Positions 32,346 to 55,553 of a stretch of DNA of 64,000 nucleotides are shown in pieces. Every line of letters starts with the position of its first letter. The first letter of the stretch is position 1. The notes below the pieces were generated by a model that had not been told where the DNA came from, made no database searches, and saw nothing but the letters and a program-made list of their open reading frames with translations. Source of the stretch: Candidatus Marinacidobacterales bacterium. GTDB lineage: Bacteria; Acidobacteriota; Vicinamibacteria; Marinacidobacterales; DATDRI01. The position numbers were made by a program, and so were the translations under genes. The DNA lies in the NCBI GenBank assembly GCA_965219415.1, contig CBDCNP010000002.1, positions 4,736,001-4,800,000 on the forward strand, written 5' to 3'.

Positions 32346-32830
32346 ATTTCACTTGGACTCCCCGTGGCGTAAATGTCGATCCGAGTGACCCGAGCAAACC
32401 AACCCTTCTCGAAGTGTTGTTGCGGTCGCCCTCGCCCACTCACTGTGCGACCAACATAAATGCACCGTTGGTCGGCCCAGAATATGTATATGCAGCTGTT
32501 ATAGCGAATGTTGTTACCGTACCAAATCTTGAAGTTCCTCTTTCGGGCGTCTATCCCCCATCCTTTGCCCCGTTTGGGGTGCCACTGCTTCTTTTGAACA
32601 TCGCTAGATCGGAAGTGCTGCTTAAAGGCAGCCGGACTTTTTGCCCGTGAATATATTTCTTTGAGTAGCTCTCCGGCTTTGCGGCGTCTAGCCTGTGAAA
32701 ACGAGAGCGAACGTCCCCGCGGTTTGCGAACGAGATGTCGCAGAACCGCCGTGCGAGACTTGTACAGTTGATCCAATTCCAGCTCGAACTGTTTCGCTGT
32801 CCTTTCAATCATCTTGGAACAACCCTCCAT
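32346..32830 (-). pseudogene. GIY-YIG-like nuclease, 3'-truncated
   Basis: CIYIFW...CIYVGRT...R.QQH; cut by the IS481-like end. Confidence 0.6.
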
Positions 32831-32971
32831 ACAGCCGCGTGCGTAGCCGCCGCCGAAAGGTTAACTTTCAGGTGCTTCTGCCATCAAGTGATGGAATGGA
32901 CTCCTCCACTGACATAGACGGCATCGATGTGCCAAAGTCAGTCGAATACGCATCGAAAAGGAGGAGTCCGA

Positions 32972-34003
32972 ATGAAAGATACGACAATCGCTGTGGATCT
33001 TGCAAAGAACGTCTTCGAGATTGCCATCTCGGGAGAAGCGGGGAAGGTGTCCAAGCAACTCCGTGTGAGTCGACCCAAATTGGTGTCGTTCTTTGCCAAA
33101 CAGAGCGCTGCCACCGTGCTTCTCGAAGCCTGCGGCTCGGCTCACTTCTGGGCAAGGACGTTCCGAAGGTTGGGACACGACGTCGTCCTGCTCCCACCTC
33201 ACCTCGTGAGGCCGTATCGACGCGGGAGCAAGAACGACCGCGCCGACACGAAGGCGTTGCTCGAGGCCTACAGGAACGAGGAGCTTCTTCCCGTACCCAT
33301 CAAGTCCGTGCACCAGCACACCCTCGCTGCGCTCCATCGCCTGCGCTCAGGATGGCTCTCCACACGGACCGCACGCATCAATGCCGTACGCGGGCTCCTG
33401 CGCGAACTCGGATTCATCATCCCAAAGGGCGCTCACTTCGTCGTGCCCGCCCTCTTCGAACTCGTCGAAGACGCTGATTCTGATTTGCCCGACGTGCTCC
33501 GTTCGCATCTCCGTGATGCCTGCTCCGAGATTCGAGAACTCAAGGACAAGTGCGCTAGCATCGAGCACGAGCTCAAGGCGCTCACCAAGCAGCTTCCTGA
33601 AGTCCAACGACTTCTCGCCATTCCCGGCATCGGACTTCTGGCCGCGACCGCCATCGTGGGCTTCGTCGGCGATCTTCGCCGCTTCCCATCGGGGCGCCGC
33701 TTCTCGAGCTACCTCGGCCTAGTTCCCAAGGAAAACTCCAGTGGCGACATTCGCCGCCTCGGACGCATCACCAAGCGTGGCGACTCCTACCTCCGTATGC
33801 TCCTCACCCAGGGCGGGCGCGCCGTGCTCCGCGCGGCGAACGTCAGCAAGAGCCCGCCCGACAAGCTCCGCGCCTGGGCTCGGAAGGTCCACCGCTCGCG
33901 GGGACACAACAAGGCCGTGATTGCTGTCGCCAACAAACTCGCCCGGATCGTCTGGGCCGTCTCCACCCGCGAGAGTGAATTCCAGTCGCCGGTGGCCGCT
34001 TAG
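32972..34003 (+). CDS. IS110 DEDD recombinase
   Basis: AVDLAKNVF, LEACG, KNDRADT, LGLVP..SSG, AVANKLARIVWA; AGGAGG RBS. Confidence 0.95.
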   Translation: MKDTTIAVDLAKNVFEIAISGEAGKVSKQLRVSRPKLVSFFAKQSAATVLLEACGSAHFWARTFRRLGHDVVLLPPHLVRPYRRGSKNDRADTKALLEAYRNEELLPVPIKSVHQHTLAALHRLRSGWLSTRTARINAVRGLLRELGFIIPKGAHFVVPALFELVEDADSDLPDVLRSHLRDACSEIRELKDKCASIEHELKALTKQLPEVQRLLAIPGIGLLAATAIVGFVGDLRRFPSGRRFSSYLGLVPKENSSGDIRRLGRITKRGDSYLRMLLTQGGRAVLRAANVSKSPPDKLRAWARKVHRSRGHNKAVIAVANKLARIVWAVSTRESEFQSPVAA

Positions 34004-34049
34004 ATTTAGAGGCTCCACTTTCGTGTTTTCCTTTTTCCCTTCCAAAAGA

Positions 34050-34235
34050 GGCTGCGACGATACCCATCCAACTGATGGCGTACCGGTCGGACCGGCGCGG
34101 GGTCAAGCCAATAGCAACACTGGCCCTAAGAGGTCGTTCAAAGTGATTGGCTCCTCGCGCGCGGATTTTCCATCATGGCCCGGAGCACCCAAGACGCTCC
34201 TCACTGAGGCCGAAGATACGTTTGCAGTCTGACCC
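34050..34235 (+). ncRNA. Putative bridge/seekRNA
   Basis: Two stem-internal-loop units; loops contain TAGCAACACT (target match) and TTCCATCAT (donor match); boundaries approximate. Confidence 0.75.
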
Positions 34236-34501
34236 ACTCGTCACGACGCGATGGATGCGCAGCTTCGATGGAAGATTTATTAAGAAAGGGGCGTGACTAG
34301 AAAGAAAGGGGCTTGACTAGAGGAGTCCAGATATGTTGCTAGGCCGCTAGAAGCATTTGAATGCGACCGCGTCCAATAAGAACATCGGCGCGCCTACAAA
34401 GCGTGATCTCTTCGGGCGTCTCGGTCTTATGAGCCGTGAGGTCAAGCACTTGCTCGCGCTCGGCCGGCGGATCCGAGAAGTCGGACGCTTCGCTCAGTGT
34501 T

Positions 34502-35182
34502 TCAAGAGCCCTTGAGATGTTTGCCGAAGAAAACCTGCACTCGGTTCCAGGCGTCACCTGCCGCGCTCGCGTCGTAGACGTCACGCTCGTCGTTGAAGAA
34601 CGCGTGGTCGACACCAGGGTAAATGTGAAAGTCGAGCGTGACCCCAGCGGTCTTCAGATTTCTCTCAAGCTCTCGCACCACGTCGGGGTTCACGAAGCTG
34701 TCGTTCTCGGCGAAAAGGCCGAGAACCGGAGCCTTTATAGCTTCTAGAACAGGCTTTACATTAGGATGAATGCCGTAGAAGTCAACGCAAGCCCCAACGT
34801 TCTCGTTCTTGCTCGCCGCGTACAATGCCAGCTGACCACCCATACAAAAGCCGATAATGCCGAGCCGACCTCCCGAAGAACGGCTCCCAAGATAGTCACA
34901 CGCACCGCGGAGATCCTTCTCCGCCCGATCGATGTTCAACGCCATCATGAGCTTCCCCGCGTCGTCGGGCGACGTAGTCTCTTTTCCGTGGTACAGGTCC
35001 GGTGCGAGCGCCACATAGCCGGCTGCGGCGAAACGGTCGGCCACGTTCTTGATGTGACCGACGAGACCCCACCATTCCTGGATGACGATCACCCCTGGAC
35101 CACCGCCTTCGGGCTCGCTCAGATAACCTTGAGACGAACTGCCGTTGGCCACAAACTCGACGATGGTGCCTTTCTCGGACAT
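34502..35182 (-). CDS. Dienelactone hydrolase family
   Basis: VIQEWWGL, GFCMGG, HAFFND. Confidence 0.92.
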   Translation of the reverse strand: MSEKGTIVEFVANGSSSQGYLSEPEGGGPGVIVIQEWWGLVGHIKNVADRFAAAGYVALAPDLYHGKETTSPDDAGKLMMALNIDRAEKDLRGACDYLGSRSSGGRLGIIGFCMGGQLALYAASKNENVGACVDFYGIHPNVKPVLEAIKAPVLGLFAENDSFVNPDVVRELERNLKTAGVTLDFHIYPGVDHAFFNDERDVYDASAAGDAWNRVQVFFGKHLKGS

Positions 35183-35644
35183 GGATGCCCTTTCTCTGGA
35201 TGCCAGCGTGCGAGCTGCGATCCTACCGCCAACGGAGGATATTGCAAGCCGAATGAAGATCGTGTATTGGCGGGCGGACAACCATGAGAGCGAAGTCCCG
35301 CGAACTCGTCTTCGACGCGGTGGAAATGTCGCCGCCGGGCCCACGTTCATAAGACGCCGGTGGTGTCGTCGGGTCGACCTGCACGAGGCAGCCGATCATG
35401 GAAGGTTTAAACGGCGCGAGTAACGCCGGACCGATCTTTTGCGGAGCACAGGCATCCCTTCGTTCAATAACCGGTGCTTCCGCAATTAAGTGTTGGCGGC
35501 CAGCCCCTAACCGGTCTGCGCGCTAGAGTTTGAACCAGAATTCCGAAGACACAGTTCTCTCATCGTCAGGGCCGAGCCAAAGTGAAGAATCGCAGATGTC
35601 TCAATCCCGTCCTGTGCCAAAACTCGACCCTTTTGAAATAGACC

Positions 35645-35863
35645 GGTGCTCCCGCCATCAAGTGTTGCTACGCCGTGTTTGAATGCTAATGTCAGCTGGC
35701 CTGCCTGTGTCGGCGTGCACACGAAGGTGCCCCTGAACGTCAGGCACCGTGTGGTCAGCCCAGCCCGCATCGCCGAAAGAACTGCGTCTCTCGAAATCAG
35801 GCTCGAACTCTAGCACACGAGCGGGTTACGCGGCAGCCACCAACACTTGATTGCGGAAGCACC
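35645..35863. mobile_element. MITE 'E', deletion derivative of an IS1-family element; empty IS1111 target
   Basis: Both TIRs present; interior encodes AGLTTRCLTFR, like the C-terminus of the 38475-39542 transposase. Confidence 0.82.
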
Positions 35864-35912
35864 AGAAGGTCTTGCACAGTACGAGGACGGATCCGGCTGT
35901 GAAGCTGAGGAA

Positions 35913-38078
35913 CTAGCCAGGAGCCGGCTTGTCCCGCTTCTTCGTGGGCTCGAACCTTAAAGGGACGCGGCCAGTCCGAGCAGTGGTTTTCGGTTTTGTG
36001 GGTTGCCTGTTCTGGGGTCTTGCTCGTCGTTCGTGTAGCCGTCGGAGCACCGAGTAGAAGTCTTCCTGCATCCGGACCGACTTGTTGCCGGGGGTGCGTT
36101 GGTAGCGATTGTCAAGCGTCTGATCGAGGATGCGGACCTTGGTATTGTCCTCCCACTGAAGGTCTAGAAACGACTGCAGCTCGTTCTGAAGTGAGGTGTC
36201 GTAGATGGGGACACCCACCTCAACTCGCCCGTCCAAGTTTCGTGGCATCCAGTCCGCCGATGAAATGAAATACTTGGGTGCTCCGCCGTTACAGAAAACC
36301 ATGATACGGGAGTGCTCGAGGTATTTGTCTACGATACCCATTGCCTTGATCCCATCGGCTCGTTCCACCTCATCGGGTAGCATCGAGAACATTCCTCTTA
36401 CGTTCAGTCTCAGTTTCACCCCCGCATCGCACGCGTCGTAAAGAAGGCCGATGAGCTCGGGATCGGTAAGATTGTTGAGCTTCAAATCGATGAACGCTTG
36501 GCGACCTCGGCTGGCATTCTTGGCCTCATTTCGAATCAGCTTCGCCAACCGCGGGCGCACGTTGAAAGGAGAGACGATCAAATGCTTATAGGCATCAACC
36601 GGGTACTTGCTTTCGAAGAAATCGAAAATCGTACGAACCTCCCGCGTCAACCGGCTGTCAGCAGTCAGTAAGGCATGGTCGCTGTAGATCTTCGTCGTGT
36701 CCTCGTTGAAGTTTCCCGTTCCGACAACCGCACAGTAGAGCGTTTGGCGCTTCACTCTGCGCTCAATCAAGCATAGTTTCGAGTGGACCTTGAGCTCAGG
36801 GACGCCATGGATGACGCGAACGCCCTCGTCTTCGAGCCGGTTTGCTAGCTCGATGTTGGTCATTTCGTCGAAACGGGCCCTCAGCTCGATGACCGCCGTG
36901 ACATCCTTGCGGTTTTGCACCGCGTTGATGAGGGCGTTAACCACCGCAGAGTCTCTCGCGATCCGATAGAGGGTCGTCTTTATCGAGGTCACATACGGGT
37001 CGATGGCAGCTTCTCTGAGAAGCGCGACCACAGACTCGAAAGACTGATAGGGAAAGTGGAGAAGCACGTCTCGTTTGGCTACCGTAGTAAGGAAACTCCC
37101 CTGCGAACTCAAATGTCGGTTCGCGAGTGCAGAGCGAGGTTCGTCCCGTAACGAGCTCGACCCAACACGTGGGAACTTCATAAAGTCTTTGAAGTTGTGA
37201 TACTTCGCGCCCGGAATCAAAGTATCCTGCCTCGTCAAGCGGAGCTTGCTGGTCAGAAATTTCAGCAGCGGTGGCGATATGTCAGCATCATAGACGAAAC
37301 GGACCGGAGCGCCCTGCGTTCTTTGTTTCAAGCTCTTGGTGACTTTGCGGATGTAGCTCTCCGAGAGATCGCTTTCGATGTCAAGCTCCGCGTCTCGAGA
37401 GACTTTGATTGTGAATGCCTCCAACCGGTCGACGTTCAGGAGAGAAAAGATGTCGCCCAAACAGAATCGGATGACATCATCGACCAAAATGATGAAGTAA
37501 TCGCCGTTCGGAGACGGCAACTGCAAAAACCTTTCTGAACCGCTCTGGGGCACTTCGATGAGCGCATATTTGGCCTTGACCACGCGAGCTCTCTCGGGAA
37601 ACAAGATCGCCAAATAGATCGATTCGTCACGAAGCGTCGGGAACTTGTCCCGAGGGTGGAGCATAATGGGCATCAATTTGGAGCGTAGGTGGGTCTGGAA
37701 GTAGTCTCTGACGAACTCCCCTTGTTCGCTAGTCAATTGCTCGTTGTTGACAATAAAGATCCTCTCTTTGGCCAACTCCTTCAGAACCTGGTTATACGTC
37801 GCGTCGAAATCTCGATGCAGGGCCAGCGACGTCTCTTGGATCTCCTTCAGTACCTTCTTTGGGTCGTATCCCAAGATCCGTCTGGCTTTCTTCCTTAGCT
37901 GCGCGATACGTCTCAGAGTGGCCACCCGGACACGGAAGAACTCGTCAAGATTGGAGGAATAAATTCCCAAGAACTTGATGCGCTCCAGTACGGGAACGTT
38001 AGGGTCGGCGGCTTCTTGGAGGACCCGGGCATTGAAAGAGAGCCAACTCAGCTCCTTGGCCCGAAGATTCGTCTTCAT
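35913..38078 (-). CDS. ppk1: Polyphosphate kinase 1
   Basis: ELSWLSFNARVLQEA, LLHFPYQSF, KVHSKL, GTGNFNE, SSADWMPRNL. Confidence 0.96.
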   Translation of the reverse strand: MKTNLRAKELSWLSFNARVLQEAADPNVPVLERIKFLGIYSSNLDEFFRVRVATLRRIAQLRKKARRILGYDPKKVLKEIQETSLALHRDFDATYNQVLKELAKERIFIVNNEQLTSEQGEFVRDYFQTHLRSKLMPIMLHPRDKFPTLRDESIYLAILFPERARVVKAKYALIEVPQSGSERFLQLPSPNGDYFIILVDDVIRFCLGDIFSLLNVDRLEAFTIKVSRDAELDIESDLSESYIRKVTKSLKQRTQGAPVRFVYDADISPPLLKFLTSKLRLTRQDTLIPGAKYHNFKDFMKFPRVGSSSLRDEPRSALANRHLSSQGSFLTTVAKRDVLLHFPYQSFESVVALLREAAIDPYVTSIKTTLYRIARDSAVVNALINAVQNRKDVTAVIELRARFDEMTNIELANRLEDEGVRVIHGVPELKVHSKLCLIERRVKRQTLYCAVVGTGNFNEDTTKIYSDHALLTADSRLTREVRTIFDFFESKYPVDAYKHLIVSPFNVRPRLAKLIRNEAKNASRGRQAFIDLKLNNLTDPELIGLLYDACDAGVKLRLNVRGMFSMLPDEVERADGIKAMGIVDKYLEHSRIMVFCNGGAPKYFISSADWMPRNLDGRVEVGVPIYDTSLQNELQSFLDLQWEDNTKVRILDQTLDNRYQRTPGNKSVRMQEDFYSVLRRLHERRARPQNRQPTKPKTTARTGRVPLRFEPTKKRDKPAPG

Positions 38079-38108
38079 AAGAGAAAAGATCCTTTCAATG
38101 GCGAAAAG

Positions 38109-38421
38109 CCCGTCCTGTGCCAAAACTCGGCCCAGCCGGCATTGACGAAAGAACTGCGCCTCTCGAAATCAGGCAAAACTCTAGCACGCGAACAGGTTAC
38201 GCGGCGACCGCCAACACTTGACTGCGGAAGCACCCATCGGTGCATCGGTTGCGTGTCCTTCATCATCATTATTATCGGCACCCTGAGCATCAGCGGGGGA
38301 ACCGTCCGGCGCAGCGGGCTTCTGGTCAGGCTCCATCGTTGTCCTCCGCCGTGATTCGGCCACGGGTGCTCCGCGATAGGCGGGGCGGACACGAACTCTA
38401 TGCAGTCGGACGCGGATGCCC
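38109..38421. repeat. Chimeric repeat 'C'
   Basis: Reverse complement of 1362-1676. Confidence 0.8.
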
Positions 38422-38451: not shown

Positions 38452-39651
38452 GGCGCTTCCGCCATCAAGTGTTGCTACGCGGCTGCGGGCAGTGGTACAG
38501 GTGCGGAAGAGACCGAGTTGCGCGCCCCAGTGAGCAGGAAAACCTCGCTCCGCGACCACAAAGGAATCGTCGTCGCCAAGAAGATGTCTCGAAAGGTGAG
38601 CCGTCGCGTCGTCAGACCGGCCTGCATAGCCGGAGTTCGGATCTCACGTCCGAACTTCAGAGCTCCGTGCGGTCGGACGAAGTTGTAATAGCAACGGAAC
38701 AACTCCAGGTGCTCATCGAGCCTCTCCGTCGAGCGAGCGTGGGAAAGTGTTCGTCTCGAAAGGTATGCCGAGCTTTGCCGGATGGTCAGATTCAACCGCT
38801 CGATGAACGACGTGTTCAATGTCGAAGAGTCCTCGGAGTTATTGAGCGCGTCTTCGAATCGCCACGCGGCTCCGTGCAGCGCTCTGCGTTCGACCTTGAT
38901 GATACGATCGTTCCTGCGCGTCTTGAGGACCTGGCCGTAAAGACACGCTGGCTCGAAGAAGCGACGGATGATCTTCTGGTAGAATTCGAATCCATCCGTG
39001 ACGATCAAGGGAAGACGCTCGAAATTCATCCGCCTCGAAAGGTCGCGAAACAGAGCGTGAGTGTTCCGGTAGCTTCGCCTTCCCGTCACCGTCGATGGCC
39101 AGAGCCGAGACCAGACCTCGATCGTAACGAAGACCCAACTCGGTGTCTTCTTGTTGCCCGCGAACGTGCGAATCTCGTCGGCTTGAAGCTCTTCGGCAGC
39201 GAAGCCAGCGATCCTTCTGTGATTGAATCGACGACACACTTGGGCTGCCTTCTCGAGCCAGCGGGCGACGGTGTTCCAGGCAATCCCTTTGATCCGGGAA
39301 ATCGAGGAAATGCTGACACCCTCGACTCTGAGAGCGATGACCACATCGAAAGTAGCTCTTCGATGTTGGAGACGGTAGTAGGGCGTGCCTTTCGTCGAGG
39401 AGAACGTCTTTCCGCACTCGCCGCACCGGTATCGACGGCGTTTCCCGGACCTGGTTCGATAGAATCCGTGGCGAACGATGTTTCCGGAACTGACTTTGCC
39501 CCGCAACGGACATGCGAGATTGAGACATCTGCGATTCTTCACTTTGGCTCGGCTCTGACGATGAGAGAACTGTGTCTTCGGAATTCTGGTTCAAACTCTA
39601 GCACGCAGACCGGTTAGGGGCTGGCCGCCAACACTTAATTGCGGAAGCACC
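38452..39651 (-). mobile_element. IS1-family element, about 1.2 kb
   Basis: TIRs GG(T/C)GCTTCCGC(A/C)AT(T/C)AAGTGTTG. Confidence 0.85.
38475..39542 (-). CDS. IS1-family transposase (Zn ribbon, HTH, DDE)
   Basis: RYRCGECGKTF, LQADE, IVTDG, TSFIERLNLTIR, YNFVRPH. Confidence 0.88.
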   Translation of the reverse strand: MKNRRCLNLACPLRGKVSSGNIVRHGFYRTRSGKRRRYRCGECGKTFSSTKGTPYYRLQHRRATFDVVIALRVEGVSISSISRIKGIAWNTVARWLEKAAQVCRRFNHRRIAGFAAEELQADEIRTFAGNKKTPSWVFVTIEVWSRLWPSTVTGRRSYRNTHALFRDLSRRMNFERLPLIVTDGFEFYQKIIRRFFEPACLYGQVLKTRRNDRIIKVERRALHGAAWRFEDALNNSEDSSTLNTSFIERLNLTIRQSSAYLSRRTLSHARSTERLDEHLELFRCYYNFVRPHGALKFGREIRTPAMQAGLTTRRLTFRDIFLATTIPLWSRSEVFLLTGARNSVSSAPVPLPAAA

Positions 39652-40207
39652 CAGCAACTGCGTGAGGCGTTTCCCTACGACACCGCTCCGAAATATCTCA
39701 TCTTCGATCGCGACTTCATCTTTAGCGCTGCGGTCATCGAGTTCATCAAAGCAACGGGCACAAAACCCGTTCGCACTTCGTTTCGCAGCCCATGGCAAAA
39801 CGGAACTGCGGAGCGGTGGGTCGGCAGCTGCCGTCGCGAGCTCCTTGAGCACGTCGTGGTTCTCGGCGCATGTCATCTCATCCGGCTCGTGCGAGCTTAC
39901 ATCAGCTACTATCACGAGGACCGTTGCCACTTGGGGCTGAACAAGGACACACCGAGCTTGAGAGCAGTCACGCACCGACCGTCTCCTACGGCGAAAGTCG
40001 TCGCACTGCCGCGAGTCGGTGGATTGCACCATCGTATACGAGTGGCGAGAGGCAGCCTGAGTCAGCTTGGTCGCTCGCGTTACTCGGCTGGTCGCCGAGA
40101 AGTTCGTCCTCAGCACCTTTCCTCGCGCGCTGACCACGCTCTCCAGCATGTGCTCGAGGGCAGTCCGGGCCTAGAGTCCAGTCCCGGACAAATAATGATG
40201 ATGGACA
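39652..40207 (+). mobile_element. 3' half of the IS481-like element with D-type right end
   Basis: Matches about 59382-59929. Confidence 0.85.
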
Positions 40208-53488: not shown

Positions 53489-54953
53489 CATATCTGGACT
53501 CCTCTAGTCACGCCCCTTTCTTTCTAGTCACGCCCCTTTCTTTCTAGTCACGCCCCTTTCTTAATAAATCTTCCATCGAAGCTGCGCATCCATCGCGTCG
53601 TGACGAGTGGGTCAGACTGCAAACGTATCTTCGGCCTCAGTGAGGAGCGTCTTGGGTGCTCCGGGCCATGATGGAAAATCCGCGCGCGAGGAGCCAATCA
53701 CTTTGAACGACCTCTTAGGGCCAGTGTTGCTATTGGCTTGACCCCGCGCCGGTCCGACCGGTACGCCATCAGTTGGATGGGTATCGTCGCAGCCTCTTTT
53801 GGAAGGGAAAAAGGAAAACACGAAAGTGGAGCCTCTAAATCTAAGCGGCCACCGGCGACTGGAATTCACTCTCGCGGGTGGAGACGGCCCAGACGATCCG
53901 GGCGAGTTTGTTGGCGACAGCAATCACGGCCTTGTTGTGTCCCCGCGAGCGGTGGACCTTCCGAGCCCAGGCGCGGAGCTTGTCGGGTGGGCTCTTGCTG
54001 ACGTTCGCCGCGCGGAGCACGGCGCGCCCGCCCTGGGTGAGGAGCATACGGAGGTAGGAGTCGCCACGCTTGGTGATGCGTCCGAGGCGGCGAATGTCGC
54101 CACTGGAGTTTTCCTTGGGAACTAGGCCGAGGTAGCTCGAGAAGCGGCGCCCCGATGGGAAGCGGCGAAGATCGCCGACGAAGCCCACGATGGCGGTCGC
54201 GGCCAGAAGTCCGATGCCGGGAATGGCGAGAAGTCGTTGGACTTCAGGAAGCTGCTTGGTGAGCGCCTTGAGCTCGTGCTCGATGCTAGCGCACTTGTCC
54301 TTGAGTTCTCGAATCTCGGAGCAGGCATCACGGAGATGCGAACGGAGCACGTCGGGCAAATCAGAATCAGCGTCTTCGACGAGTTCGAAGAGGGCGGGCA
54401 CGACGAAGTGAGCGCCCTTTGGGATGATGAATCCGAGTTCGCGCAGGAGCCCGCGTACGGCATTGATGCGTGCGGTCCGTGTGGAGAGCCATCCTGAGCG
54501 CAGGCGATGGAGCGCGGCGAGGGTGTGCTGGTGCACGGACTTGATGGGTACGGGAAGAAGCTCCTCGTTCCTGTAGGCCTCGAGCAACGCCTTCGTGTCG
54601 GCGCGGTCGTTCTTGCTCCCGCGTCGATACGGCCTCACGAGGTGAGGTGGGAGCAGGACGACGTCGTGTCCCAATCTTCGGAACGTCCTTGCCCAGAAGT
54701 GAGCCGAGCCGCAGGCTTCGAGAAGCACGGTGGCAGCGCTCTGTTTGGCAAAGAACGACACCAATTTGGGTCGACTCACACGGAGTTGCTTGGACACCTT
54801 CCCCGCTTCTCCCGAGATGGCAATCTCGAAGACGTTCTTTGCAAGATCCACAGCGATTGTCGTATCTTTCATTCGGACTCCTCCTTTTCGATGCGTATTC
54901 GACTGACTTTGGCACATCGATGCCGTCTATGTCAGTGGAGGAGTCCATTCCAT
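53489..54953 (-). mobile_element. IS1111-group element, copy 2
   Basis: Near-identical to copy 1; same target position. Confidence 0.93.
53841..54872 (-). CDS. IS110 DEDD recombinase
   Basis: Same protein sequence as 32972-34003. Confidence 0.95.
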   Translation of the reverse strand: MKDTTIAVDLAKNVFEIAISGEAGKVSKQLRVSRPKLVSFFAKQSAATVLLEACGSAHFWARTFRRLGHDVVLLPPHLVRPYRRGSKNDRADTKALLEAYRNEELLPVPIKSVHQHTLAALHRLRSGWLSTRTARINAVRGLLRELGFIIPKGAHFVVPALFELVEDADSDLPDVLRSHLRDACSEIRELKDKCASIEHELKALTKQLPEVQRLLAIPGIGLLAATAIVGFVGDLRRFPSGRRFSSYLGLVPKENSSGDIRRLGRITKRGDSYLRMLLTQGGRAVLRAANVSKSPPDKLRAWARKVHRSRGHNKAVIAVANKLARIVWAVSTRESEFQSPVAA

Positions 54954-54973
54954 CACTTGATGGCGGAAGCACC

Positions 54974-55553
54974 GCTTCGCCTTCCCGTCACCGTCGATGG
55001 CCAGAGCCGAGACCAGACTTCGATTGTAACGAAGACCCAACTCGGTGTCTTCTTGTTGCTCGCGAACGTGCGAATCTCGTCGGCTTGAAGCTCTTCGGCA
55101 GCGAAGCCAGCGATCCTTCTGTGATTGAATCGACGACACACTTGGGCTGCCTTCTCGAGCCAGCGGGCGACGGTGTTCCAGGCAATCCCTTTGATCCGGG
55201 AAATCGCGGAAATGCTGACACCCTCGACTCTGAGAGCGATGACCCCATCGAAAGTAGCTCTTCGATGTTGGAGACGGTAGTAGGGCGTGCCTTTCGTCGA
55301 AGAGAACGTCTTTCCGCACTCGCCGCACCGGTATCGACGGCGTTTCCCGGACCTGGTTCGGTAGAATCCGTGGCGAACGATGTTTCCGGAACTGACTTTG
55401 CCCCGCAACGGACATGCGAGATTGAGACATCTGCGATTCTTCACTTTGGCTCGGCCCTGACGATGAGAGAACTGTGTCTTCGGAATTCTGGTTCAAACTC
55501 TAGCACGCAGACCGGTTAGGGGCTGGCCGCCAACACTTAATTGCGGAAGCACC
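54974..55553 (-). mobile_element. 5' half of the IS1-family element
   Basis: Matches 39072-39651. Confidence 0.85.

Follow-up and report, generated by a model that had tools for sequence, protein, structure and literature searches.

An IS1111-type insertion sequence whose seekRNA loop probably reads the end-repeat of a distant IS1-like element and of MITEs in an acidobacteriotal genome

The window studied here is a stretch of 64,000 nt (G000:C3:4736001-4800000) from the 8.05-Mb genome of an uncultured marine Acidobacteriota, and it carries two copies of an insertion sequence (IS) that we read, with a probability of roughly 0.88, as an active RNA-guided IS of the IS1111 type (IS110 family), in which a loop of the seekRNA (bridge RNA) reads the end-repeat of a distant IS1-like element and of its miniature inverted-repeat transposable elements (MITEs). 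Across the genome, the element occupies one position, 20 bp inside one terminal inverted repeat, always in the same orientation, which amounts to a strict specificity; the guide segments of its RNA covary with the flanking sequences among its relatives; and its insertions are independent and recent. Recognition concerns a motif of ~11-15 bp that the RNA of the element itself specifies, and not the repeat as such.

A Single Site and Orientation for All Copies

The first copy (32891..34335, + strand) is 1445 bp long and, because both junctions share a 2-nt TG, could equally validly be drawn at 32889-34333; the second (53489..54953, - strand) measures 1465 bp and contains three 20-bp units, one more than the first. 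In copy 1, the left target half (32871..32890, +; GGTGCTTCTGCCATCAAGTG) is the outer 20 bp of an IS1-like terminal inverted repeat, of which the last two bases are the shared TG core, and the right target half (34336..34350, +; TTGCTAGGCCGC...) is the inner part of the same, interrupted end-repeat. In both window copies, the left flank reads GGTGCTTC(T/C)GCCATCAAGTG and the right flank TTGCTA(G/C)G, with TG at either junction. This is the arrangement that an earlier reading made from the letters of the stretch (hereafter the sequence-only reading) had described for the two copies, and it extends genome-wide to 33/33 left junctions. Copy 2 lies within a MITE that is itself within another IS1-like copy (54974 onward matches 39070-39200).

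A BLAST search of the element against the whole genome returned 36 high-scoring segment pairs (HSPs), which correspond to 30 complete and four partial copies. Among the single full-length HSPs (n = 26), 16 are 100% identical and the remainder at least 99.4% identical; four further complete copies differ by the number of 20-bp units or by 2 nt, and the other four copies are fragments. Inserts at occupied sites measure 1445 bp (25 copies), 1425 bp (2), 1465 bp (1), 1446 bp (1) and 1439 bp (1). All 33 left junctions read GGTGCTTC(C/T)GC(C/T)ATCAAGTG^ (the caret marks the point of insertion), i.e., the same 20-mer with at most one substitution, and the sequence outside this 20-mer is different at nearly every one of them. 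Right junctions begin with TTGCTA in 28 of 30 cases, and the orientation relative to the end-repeat is identical for all genome copies. Unrelated flanks around other copies had been named in advance as a sign that site-specific targeting was mistaken; the target flanks turned out to be the same across the genome copies.

Public sequencing runs contain the empty allele of the window locus. In an 811-nt contig of run X1, position 32888 is joined to 34334, with exactly 1445 bp skipped, a 2-nt ambiguity (TG) and 0 mismatches across the 486+325 flanking bases, and the same joint is present in run X2, with a short side of 28 nt. Since the X1 contig omits precisely the length of the element between mismatch-free flanks, the element boundaries are exact and the window insertion is polymorphic. 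In the contig sets of these public runs, the element has 40 to 100 times the depth of its flanks, a figure that fits many copies and is not itself a copy number.

The genome holds a large family of related end-repeats, which allows occupied sites to be compared with empty ones. Our site set comprises the 511 genome sites within four substitutions (<=4) of the left 20-mer, from which three further occupied sites lacking a right end within 1.7 kb were left out of the occupancy counts. The cognate site, CATCAAGTG^TTGCTA, is occupied in 27/102 cases, and all non-cognate classes together in 3/406: sites with the cognate left half and another right half in 2/56, CATTAAGTG^TTGGTGAGA ends in 0/92, and the other end of the host IS, AATTAAGTG^TTGGCGGCC, in 0/45. 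Given the cognate left half, the difference between the right half TTGCTA (27/102) and other right halves (2/56) has a Fisher p of 2e-4, computed on sites that are not phylogenetically independent. The three occupied non-cognate sites comprise a copy that adjoins a fragment of another copy, a site with TTGGCGGCC as its right half and a site with a single substitution in the left half. Uninterrupted cognate sites are present in the window as the sequence-only reading had described them, at a MITE end (35645..35672, +; GGTGCTCCCGCCATCAAGTGTTGCTACG) and at the end of the intact host IS that adjoins the transposase C-terminus (38452-38480). Contig C1 (2.07 Mb, ~26% of the genome) has 8/511 of the end-repeat-like sites and 0 element copies; it may represent a replicon of its own or a contig that does not belong in the bin, the assembly being rated at 8.45% contamination.

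A Probable Guide RNA Loop That Varies with the Insertion Site

In IS1111-type elements, a seekRNA or bridge RNA encoded downstream of the gene bears short segments complementary to both target strands, according to PMC11187229 and PMC11208160. In the 3' non-coding region of the window element (34004-34335), an alignment of 15 sequences delimits a conserved scaffold of this kind (34048..34235, +), for which RNAalifold predicts 24 consensus pairs, 11 of them with compensatory changes. The predicted fold includes an internal loop closed by GCCAAU/AUUGGC, with UAGCAACACU (34112..34121, +) as its 5' strand and UUCAAAGUG (34137..34145, +) as its 3' strand. The former is the perfect complement of the top strand AG-TG-TTGCTA, i.e., of AGTGTTGCTA, and the sole 10-mer target match in the 332-nt 3' region; the latter contains AAGUG, which is the AAGTG of the target top strand and matches the left flank. 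The segments stand in the order expected of a seekRNA, the complement of the top strand (34112-34121) lying 5' of the complement of the bottom strand (34137-34145), and both include the TG. An 8-mer that matches the target, TGATGGCG at 34073, was considered as a target guide and dropped, as the alignment places it in a conserved RNA-RNA helix (GAUGG/CCAUC) with a covariation of its own.

The guides covary with the flanks. When aligned, the non-coding regions of the relatives share one scaffold and vary precisely in the two loop strands: the 5' strand is in each case reverse-complementary to the element's own right flank (e.g., GAUAACAAUCG vs. TGATTGTTATC in relative L044 and GCAACUGCG vs. CGCAGTTGC in L006), and the 3' strand is each element's left flank followed by YG (e.g., GCUGCAUCG vs. 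CAGCTGCAT in L077 and CGUCCGGACG vs. CGTCCAGA in L006). When the pairing of guides with their cognate sites is summed over 12 lineages that differ in their flanks, it amounts to 168, a value reached in 0/20000 permutations; when the strands are taken singly, the 5' strand is reached by 1/20000 permutations and the 3' strand by 8/20000.

Two further segments are candidate donor guides. The first, UUCCAUCAU (34168..34176, +), is complementary to the left end A-TG-ATGGAA, but its assignment is tentative because it shares bases with a conserved RNA-RNA helix (CCAUC with GAUGG at 34074-34078). The second, AGAUACG (34214..34220, +), equals the right end AGATA followed by YG and covaries with the right-end variants of the relatives (GATA, TATA, TACA, GACA). 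A low-depth contig of the RNA-library run X18 matches 34082-34102 and 34206-34232, with 99 other letters in between (window 34102-34206), and, to judge from its letters, resembles a relative whose guide module has been replaced. Of the gene, that run yielded parts only, at 95-99% likeness and low depth, which we take as no evidence of expression.

Relatives in Other Genomes

Copies of the element with 90-98% amino acid (aa) identity are found in five related genomes, and relatives with 38-62% aa identity in many phyla (the genome tallies for host and element include G007, which is unpublished and on which no claim rests). In four related genomes (92-98% aa copies), 24/31 distinct left junctions lie in the same end-repeat. 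Genome G016 (L045-L062), which carries a 93% variant, has 6/9 distinct left junctions outside end-repeats; AGTG is kept in 6/6 of these, CAAGTG in 3/6 and a right flank beginning with TTGCT in 2/6, which makes them candidates for off-target or minimal sites. The proposal of the sequence-only reading, that the element targets the terminal inverted repeat of IS1-family elements and MITEs, therefore needs qualification: its strict site, single position and single orientation hold, but the repeat itself is not what is recognised (6/9 G016 junctions outside), only one of the two host ends is used (0/45 at the other), and the host is only a distant relative of IS1.

The relative L044 (one copy in G034, 93% aa) has loop sequences GAUAACAAUCG / UUUGCAGCG that match its own site, gccgtctgctccag^tgattgttatccc, of which the reconstructed empty form has 0 matches at <=3 mismatches elsewhere in G034. 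L006 and L023 (both in G008, 61% aa) sit in a palindromic site, CGCAACTGCGTCCAGA^CGCAGTTGCG, with TG at the left junction and CG at the right one. That more distant relatives also reside in IS1-like ends was considered and rejected, since tblastn with the host transposase matched loci of closely related genomes only; in addition, an NCBIfam scan of 16 open reading frames (ORFs) from the flanks of distant relatives detected no IS1 and only one IS1182 fragment and one IS3. The host transposase was found in 15/41 genomes searched, including 6/6 of those in which the element is present at >=90% identity; the host gave 24 matches in G022, where the element is absent at that identity, and in the two genomes of the same genus the host is present and the element absent.

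Independence of the Insertions and Alternative Explanations

The insertions are independent and recent, since the hosts have diverged while the inserts have remained 99.4-100% identical. The 33 intact host copies show a mean difference of 36.9 per 1200 bp (about 3%), and each of the three occupied intact hosts is nearer an empty copy (15-17 differences) than an occupied one (23-25). Within the full-IS class (first 400 bp, all 72 sites), the nearest copy is empty for 11/15 occupied hosts, with one tie and three occupied, and in the MITE class it is empty for 9/11 occupied hosts, the very high distances in some rows of this comparison stemming from truncated or nested hosts. Inserts are found in at least four host classes, i.e., the full IS, two MITE types and one TTGGCGGCC end. 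That a single ancient insertion was instead multiplied as a composite (host IS plus passenger) by host transposition or segmental duplication, the identity of the junctions reflecting common descent, is in our view extremely unlikely. An outside flank is indeed common to one occupied pair (C3:3049816 and C3:4171993), and the composite tip keeps the outer 20 bp of the end-repeat; yet such a history sits badly with hosts that differ by 1-15% around nearly identical inserts and are mostly closest to empty copies, with the number of host classes occupied, with the empty allele of the same locus and with the six junctions outside end-repeats in the related genome, which keep AGTG on the left and, in two cases, TTGCT on the right. 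Segmental duplication had also been considered for the two window copies by the sequence-only reading, which leaned against it, rightly in the light of the host divergence, the nearest neighbours and the empty allele in X1/X2. That homologous recombination or gene conversion, rather than site-specific insertion, carried the insertion allele from one host copy to another is likewise highly unlikely: homologous host ends number in the hundreds in the genome, and the nearest neighbour is occupied for 3/15 full-IS hosts and 2/11 MITE hosts, but the host sequence is variable as close as 10-25 bp to the junction (ACGCGG, ACACGG, ACGTGG, ACGCCG, AGGCCG), where conversion tracts would homogenise it, insertions occur at non-homologous sites with only the motif in common, and the covariation of guides and flanks in distant relatives would be left unexplained.

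Recognition might also lie with a protein, either the recombinase itself or the host transposase bound at its end and recruiting the element, in which case the RNA matches would be incidental. In favour of this, occupied sites hardly vary across the entire 20-bp outer half, although the RNA pairs with only 5-7 bases of it. We nevertheless consider it very unlikely, because the 10-nt perfect complement sits in a loop that covaries with the flanks in 12 lineages, because the 93%-identical transposase of L044 is accompanied by different loop sequences and by a different site matching those sequences, because sites outside end-repeats are used in the related genome, and because RNA dependence has been demonstrated experimentally for family members (PMC11187229).

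Several observations do weigh against the RNA-guided reading. The left guide pairs with the target over five contiguous bases only, or seven with one A bulged, and for this reason the conservation of the left half may in part reflect the conserved end-repeat rather than recognition. The helix that UUCCAUCAU overlaps covaries (GC 9, CG 4, AU 1) independently of the left-end sequence, and the donor guide at the right end has CG where the element's right junction has TG. An Rfam scan of 32700-34500 (E up to 10) gave chance-level matches and no bridge RNA or seekRNA family. Neither RNA ends nor a circle junction nor a transposition event was seen in the public runs, which are available as contigs only, and the occupancy counts are phylogenetically non-independent.

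Anatomy of the Element and Proposed Mechanism

The DEDD transposase gene (32972..34003, +) encodes 343 aa from the ATG at 32972, which is likely its start: a ribosome-binding site (GGAGGAG) lies upstream and the transposases of relatives begin at the equivalent MKDTT, the mechanically called ORF starting at 32927 (358 aa). Its product matches PF01548 (DEDD_Tnp_IS110, E 7.8e-12) and PF02371 (Transposase_20, E 3.4e-24) in Pfam, as well as NF033542 in NCBIfam ('IS110 family RNA-guided transposase', 302.6 bits for a cut-off of 140, E 3.4e-90). The IS1111 motif GL-P----S(t)G is found as LGLVPKENSSG at about 33713-33745, the length falls within the 330-350 aa of the family, and the non-coding DNA is distributed as in IS1111 elements, with 332 bp 3' of the gene (34004-34335) vs. 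81 bp upstream. Together with the subterminal repeat and the likeness to ISPa25 detailed below, the Pfam and NCBIfam matches support the assignment to the IS1111 group that had been made from the sequence.

The left subterminal inverted repeat (32897..32907, +; TGGACTCCTCC) is preceded by the left extension (TG)ATGGAA, and the right one (34320..34329, +; GAGGAGTCCA) is followed by the right extension GATA and TG (34330-34335). The 11-bp repeat, TGGACTCCTC(C), pairs 32897-32907 with 34320-34329 at 10 perfect positions (11 in most copies) and recurs unchanged in ISPa25 and, down to about 45% aa, in most of the relatives checked; such repeats usually measure 11-13 bp in the IS1111 family (PMC11187229). 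A circle deduced from these ends would have 12 bp between the repeats (GATA-TG-ATGGAA). For the 7-bp left and 3-bp right extensions of the family to appear (TGATGGA / ATA), the TG has to go with the left end and the repeat has to be taken as 12 positions, one of them mismatched, a geometry that ISPa25 displays perfectly.

Two 20-bp tandem units (34282..34321, +) stand beside the right end, the second with a putative outward -35 hexamer, TTGACT (34313-34318). Across the deduced junction, TTGACT at the right end and an extended -10, TGnTGGAAT, at the left end would be 18 bp apart and form a candidate promoter. The unit, AAGAAAGGGGC[G/T]TGACTAGA, varies in number among genome copies, and in copy 2 (53503-53562) all three units have GTGACT instead of TTGACT. 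At the other end (window 32897-32969), the left subterminal repeat pairs with GGAGGAGUCC, which holds the ribosome-binding site, in a 10-bp stem; the predicted fold energy is -32 kcal/mol for 32891-32990 and -16.3 if the RNA starts at 32906. On this fold model, the stem could block the translation of read-through transcripts and spare transcripts from a junction promoter.

Taken as a whole, the element would encode a DEDD recombinase and, in its 3' non-coding region, a seekRNA (bridge RNA), the ends of which presumably fall within 34048-34235. One internal RNA loop would read both strands of a ~15-bp target, ..(T)CAAG-TG-TTGCTA, and a second RNA region would match the element's own joined ends. 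By analogy with family members that have been studied, we propose that the element excises as a circle with the deduced junction ..GGAGTCCAGATA-TG-ATGGAATGGACTCC.., that the abutted ends create a promoter (-35 TTGACT from the right end, TGnTGGAAT from the left end), and that recombination between circle and target at the shared TG is then carried out by the recombinase-RNA complex, always in one orientation and with no duplication. The insertion splits the host end-repeat; transcription of the element would run antisense to the host transposase gene, and damage to the host IS might follow.

The Host Element and Its Surroundings

The intact host IS (38452..39652, - strand) encodes a transposase of 355 aa (38475-39542, -), for which the best family is IS1, all scores lying below the cut-offs: 85.2 bits vs. 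100 for NF033558, 22.2 vs. 24.1 for PF03400 (DDE_Tnp_IS1) and 20.1 vs. 28 for the IS1/IS1595 zinc domain. By eye, the host tip GGTGCTTCCGCCATC agrees with the end of E. coli IS1A, GGTGATGCTGCCAAC, at 11/15 ungapped positions, and scripted 30-nt global alignments of IS1A ends with host ends, in which the host copy used had a variant tip, were not significant. We therefore regard the host as a probable distant relative of the IS1 family and not as a proven member. Nested mobile elements are dense at 35463-35866 and 54954-55100, where a MITE (35645-35866) directly adjoins a partial IS end (35463-35644), and ordinary genes lie between the elements, namely those of a dienelactone hydrolase family protein and of a polyphosphate kinase (34502-35350, 35913-38123).

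Insertion may plausibly disable the host IS. A bolder scenario, which we find doubtful, is that an attC-targeting lineage switched through a few guide substitutions (UAACAA to UAGCAA; CG to UG) and has become a true hyperparasite that limits the IS1-like family, splitting one end-repeat in about a quarter of the cognate copies and running antisense into the host gene; its spread across genera would then track, and depend on, the host IS.

The RNA-guided recombinases of the IS110/IS1111 type are under development as programmable genome-editing tools, and this genome amounts to a natural specificity experiment, with 511 sites that differ by a few bases and an occupied-or-empty read-out, to which close relatives with changed guides and targets can be added. 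From these data, the right half TTGCTA and the TG core are the positions that matter in vivo, and a left guide with only 5-7 paired bases is tolerated.

Comparison with Known Systems

The closest named relative is ISPa25 (45.9% aa), a member, with ISPst6 and ISKpn4, of the IS1111-attC group (PMC11187229). Both elements have the same subterminal repeat, ATGGACTCCTCC, an RNA scaffold of the form GCCGAUAACAA..CGAU(U/A)GGC..UUCCAUGAUGGCCC..GGCCGAAUAUACG and, if TG and repeat are counted as above, the left extension TGATGGA and the right extension ATA; in its record, ISPa25 is placed in a class 1 integron, between a beta-lactamase cassette and qacEdelta1. The right flank of uncultured relatives (44-62% aa) contains ..TTGTTAG.., a likeness that attC sites account for, and in L084 and L088 (44-45% aa), the target occurs 40 times on the same strand within about 31 kb, plus one outlier, in an array that starts about 800 bp away from the gene of an integron integrase (TIGR02249, 438.7 bits vs. 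a cut-off of 265), which makes these target sites attC sites. We take GTTAGGC to be the R' core of attC. The window element departs from this group in its 5' guide (UAGCAACACU vs. (A)UAACAA..), in its 3' guide (ending in UG vs. CG) and in its sites, as all 33 genome junctions lie in IS1-like end-repeats. Since ISPa25 resides in an integron and a distant relative targets attC, we infer that the lineage probably descends from the attC-targeting IS1111 group and was retargeted to the IS1-like end-repeat by guide changes; a probable target shift from integron attC sites to an IS end would thus be documented.

A pair of elements reprogrammed by nature is already on record in ISEc11 and ISXne4, which have related transposases and conserved stems but different target segments, each matching its own flanks (PMC11187229). 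To judge from their sequences, L044 (93% aa) and the window element appear to be such a pair, with other targets. In the bridge RNA of IS621, an internal loop likewise has one strand that pairs with the top-strand core and right flank and another that equals the left flank and core, and the ends of the element itself are read in this way by a second module (PMC11208160). Here, by contrast, the RNA is encoded 3' of the gene, the element has a long subterminal repeat, the donor part would be at the multiloop and the strand order is reversed, as in IS1111 types.

A transposable element inside the end of another also has a precedent. IS4321 and IS5075, of the IS1111 type, reportedly insert in the terminal inverted repeat of another transposable element, as Partridge and Hall are said to have described in 2003. 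They share with the window element a single fixed position and a single orientation in such a repeat, and differ from it, as judged from descriptions and not from a sequence comparison, by their hosts (Tn3-family transposons of the Tn21 type in Proteobacteria vs. an IS1-like IS and MITEs in Acidobacteriota), by an unrelated target sequence and by low copy numbers per genome vs. 30 here. In our full-text literature search, in which ISfinder was not covered, no account of IS1-family ends serving as a target came up, in agreement with the sequence-only reading, which knew of none. The habit of settling in the end of another mobile element is thereby extended from Tn21-type transposons to an IS and MITEs of uncultured marine Acidobacteriota, and the window element brings a new target and host class to a known, programmable kind of element.

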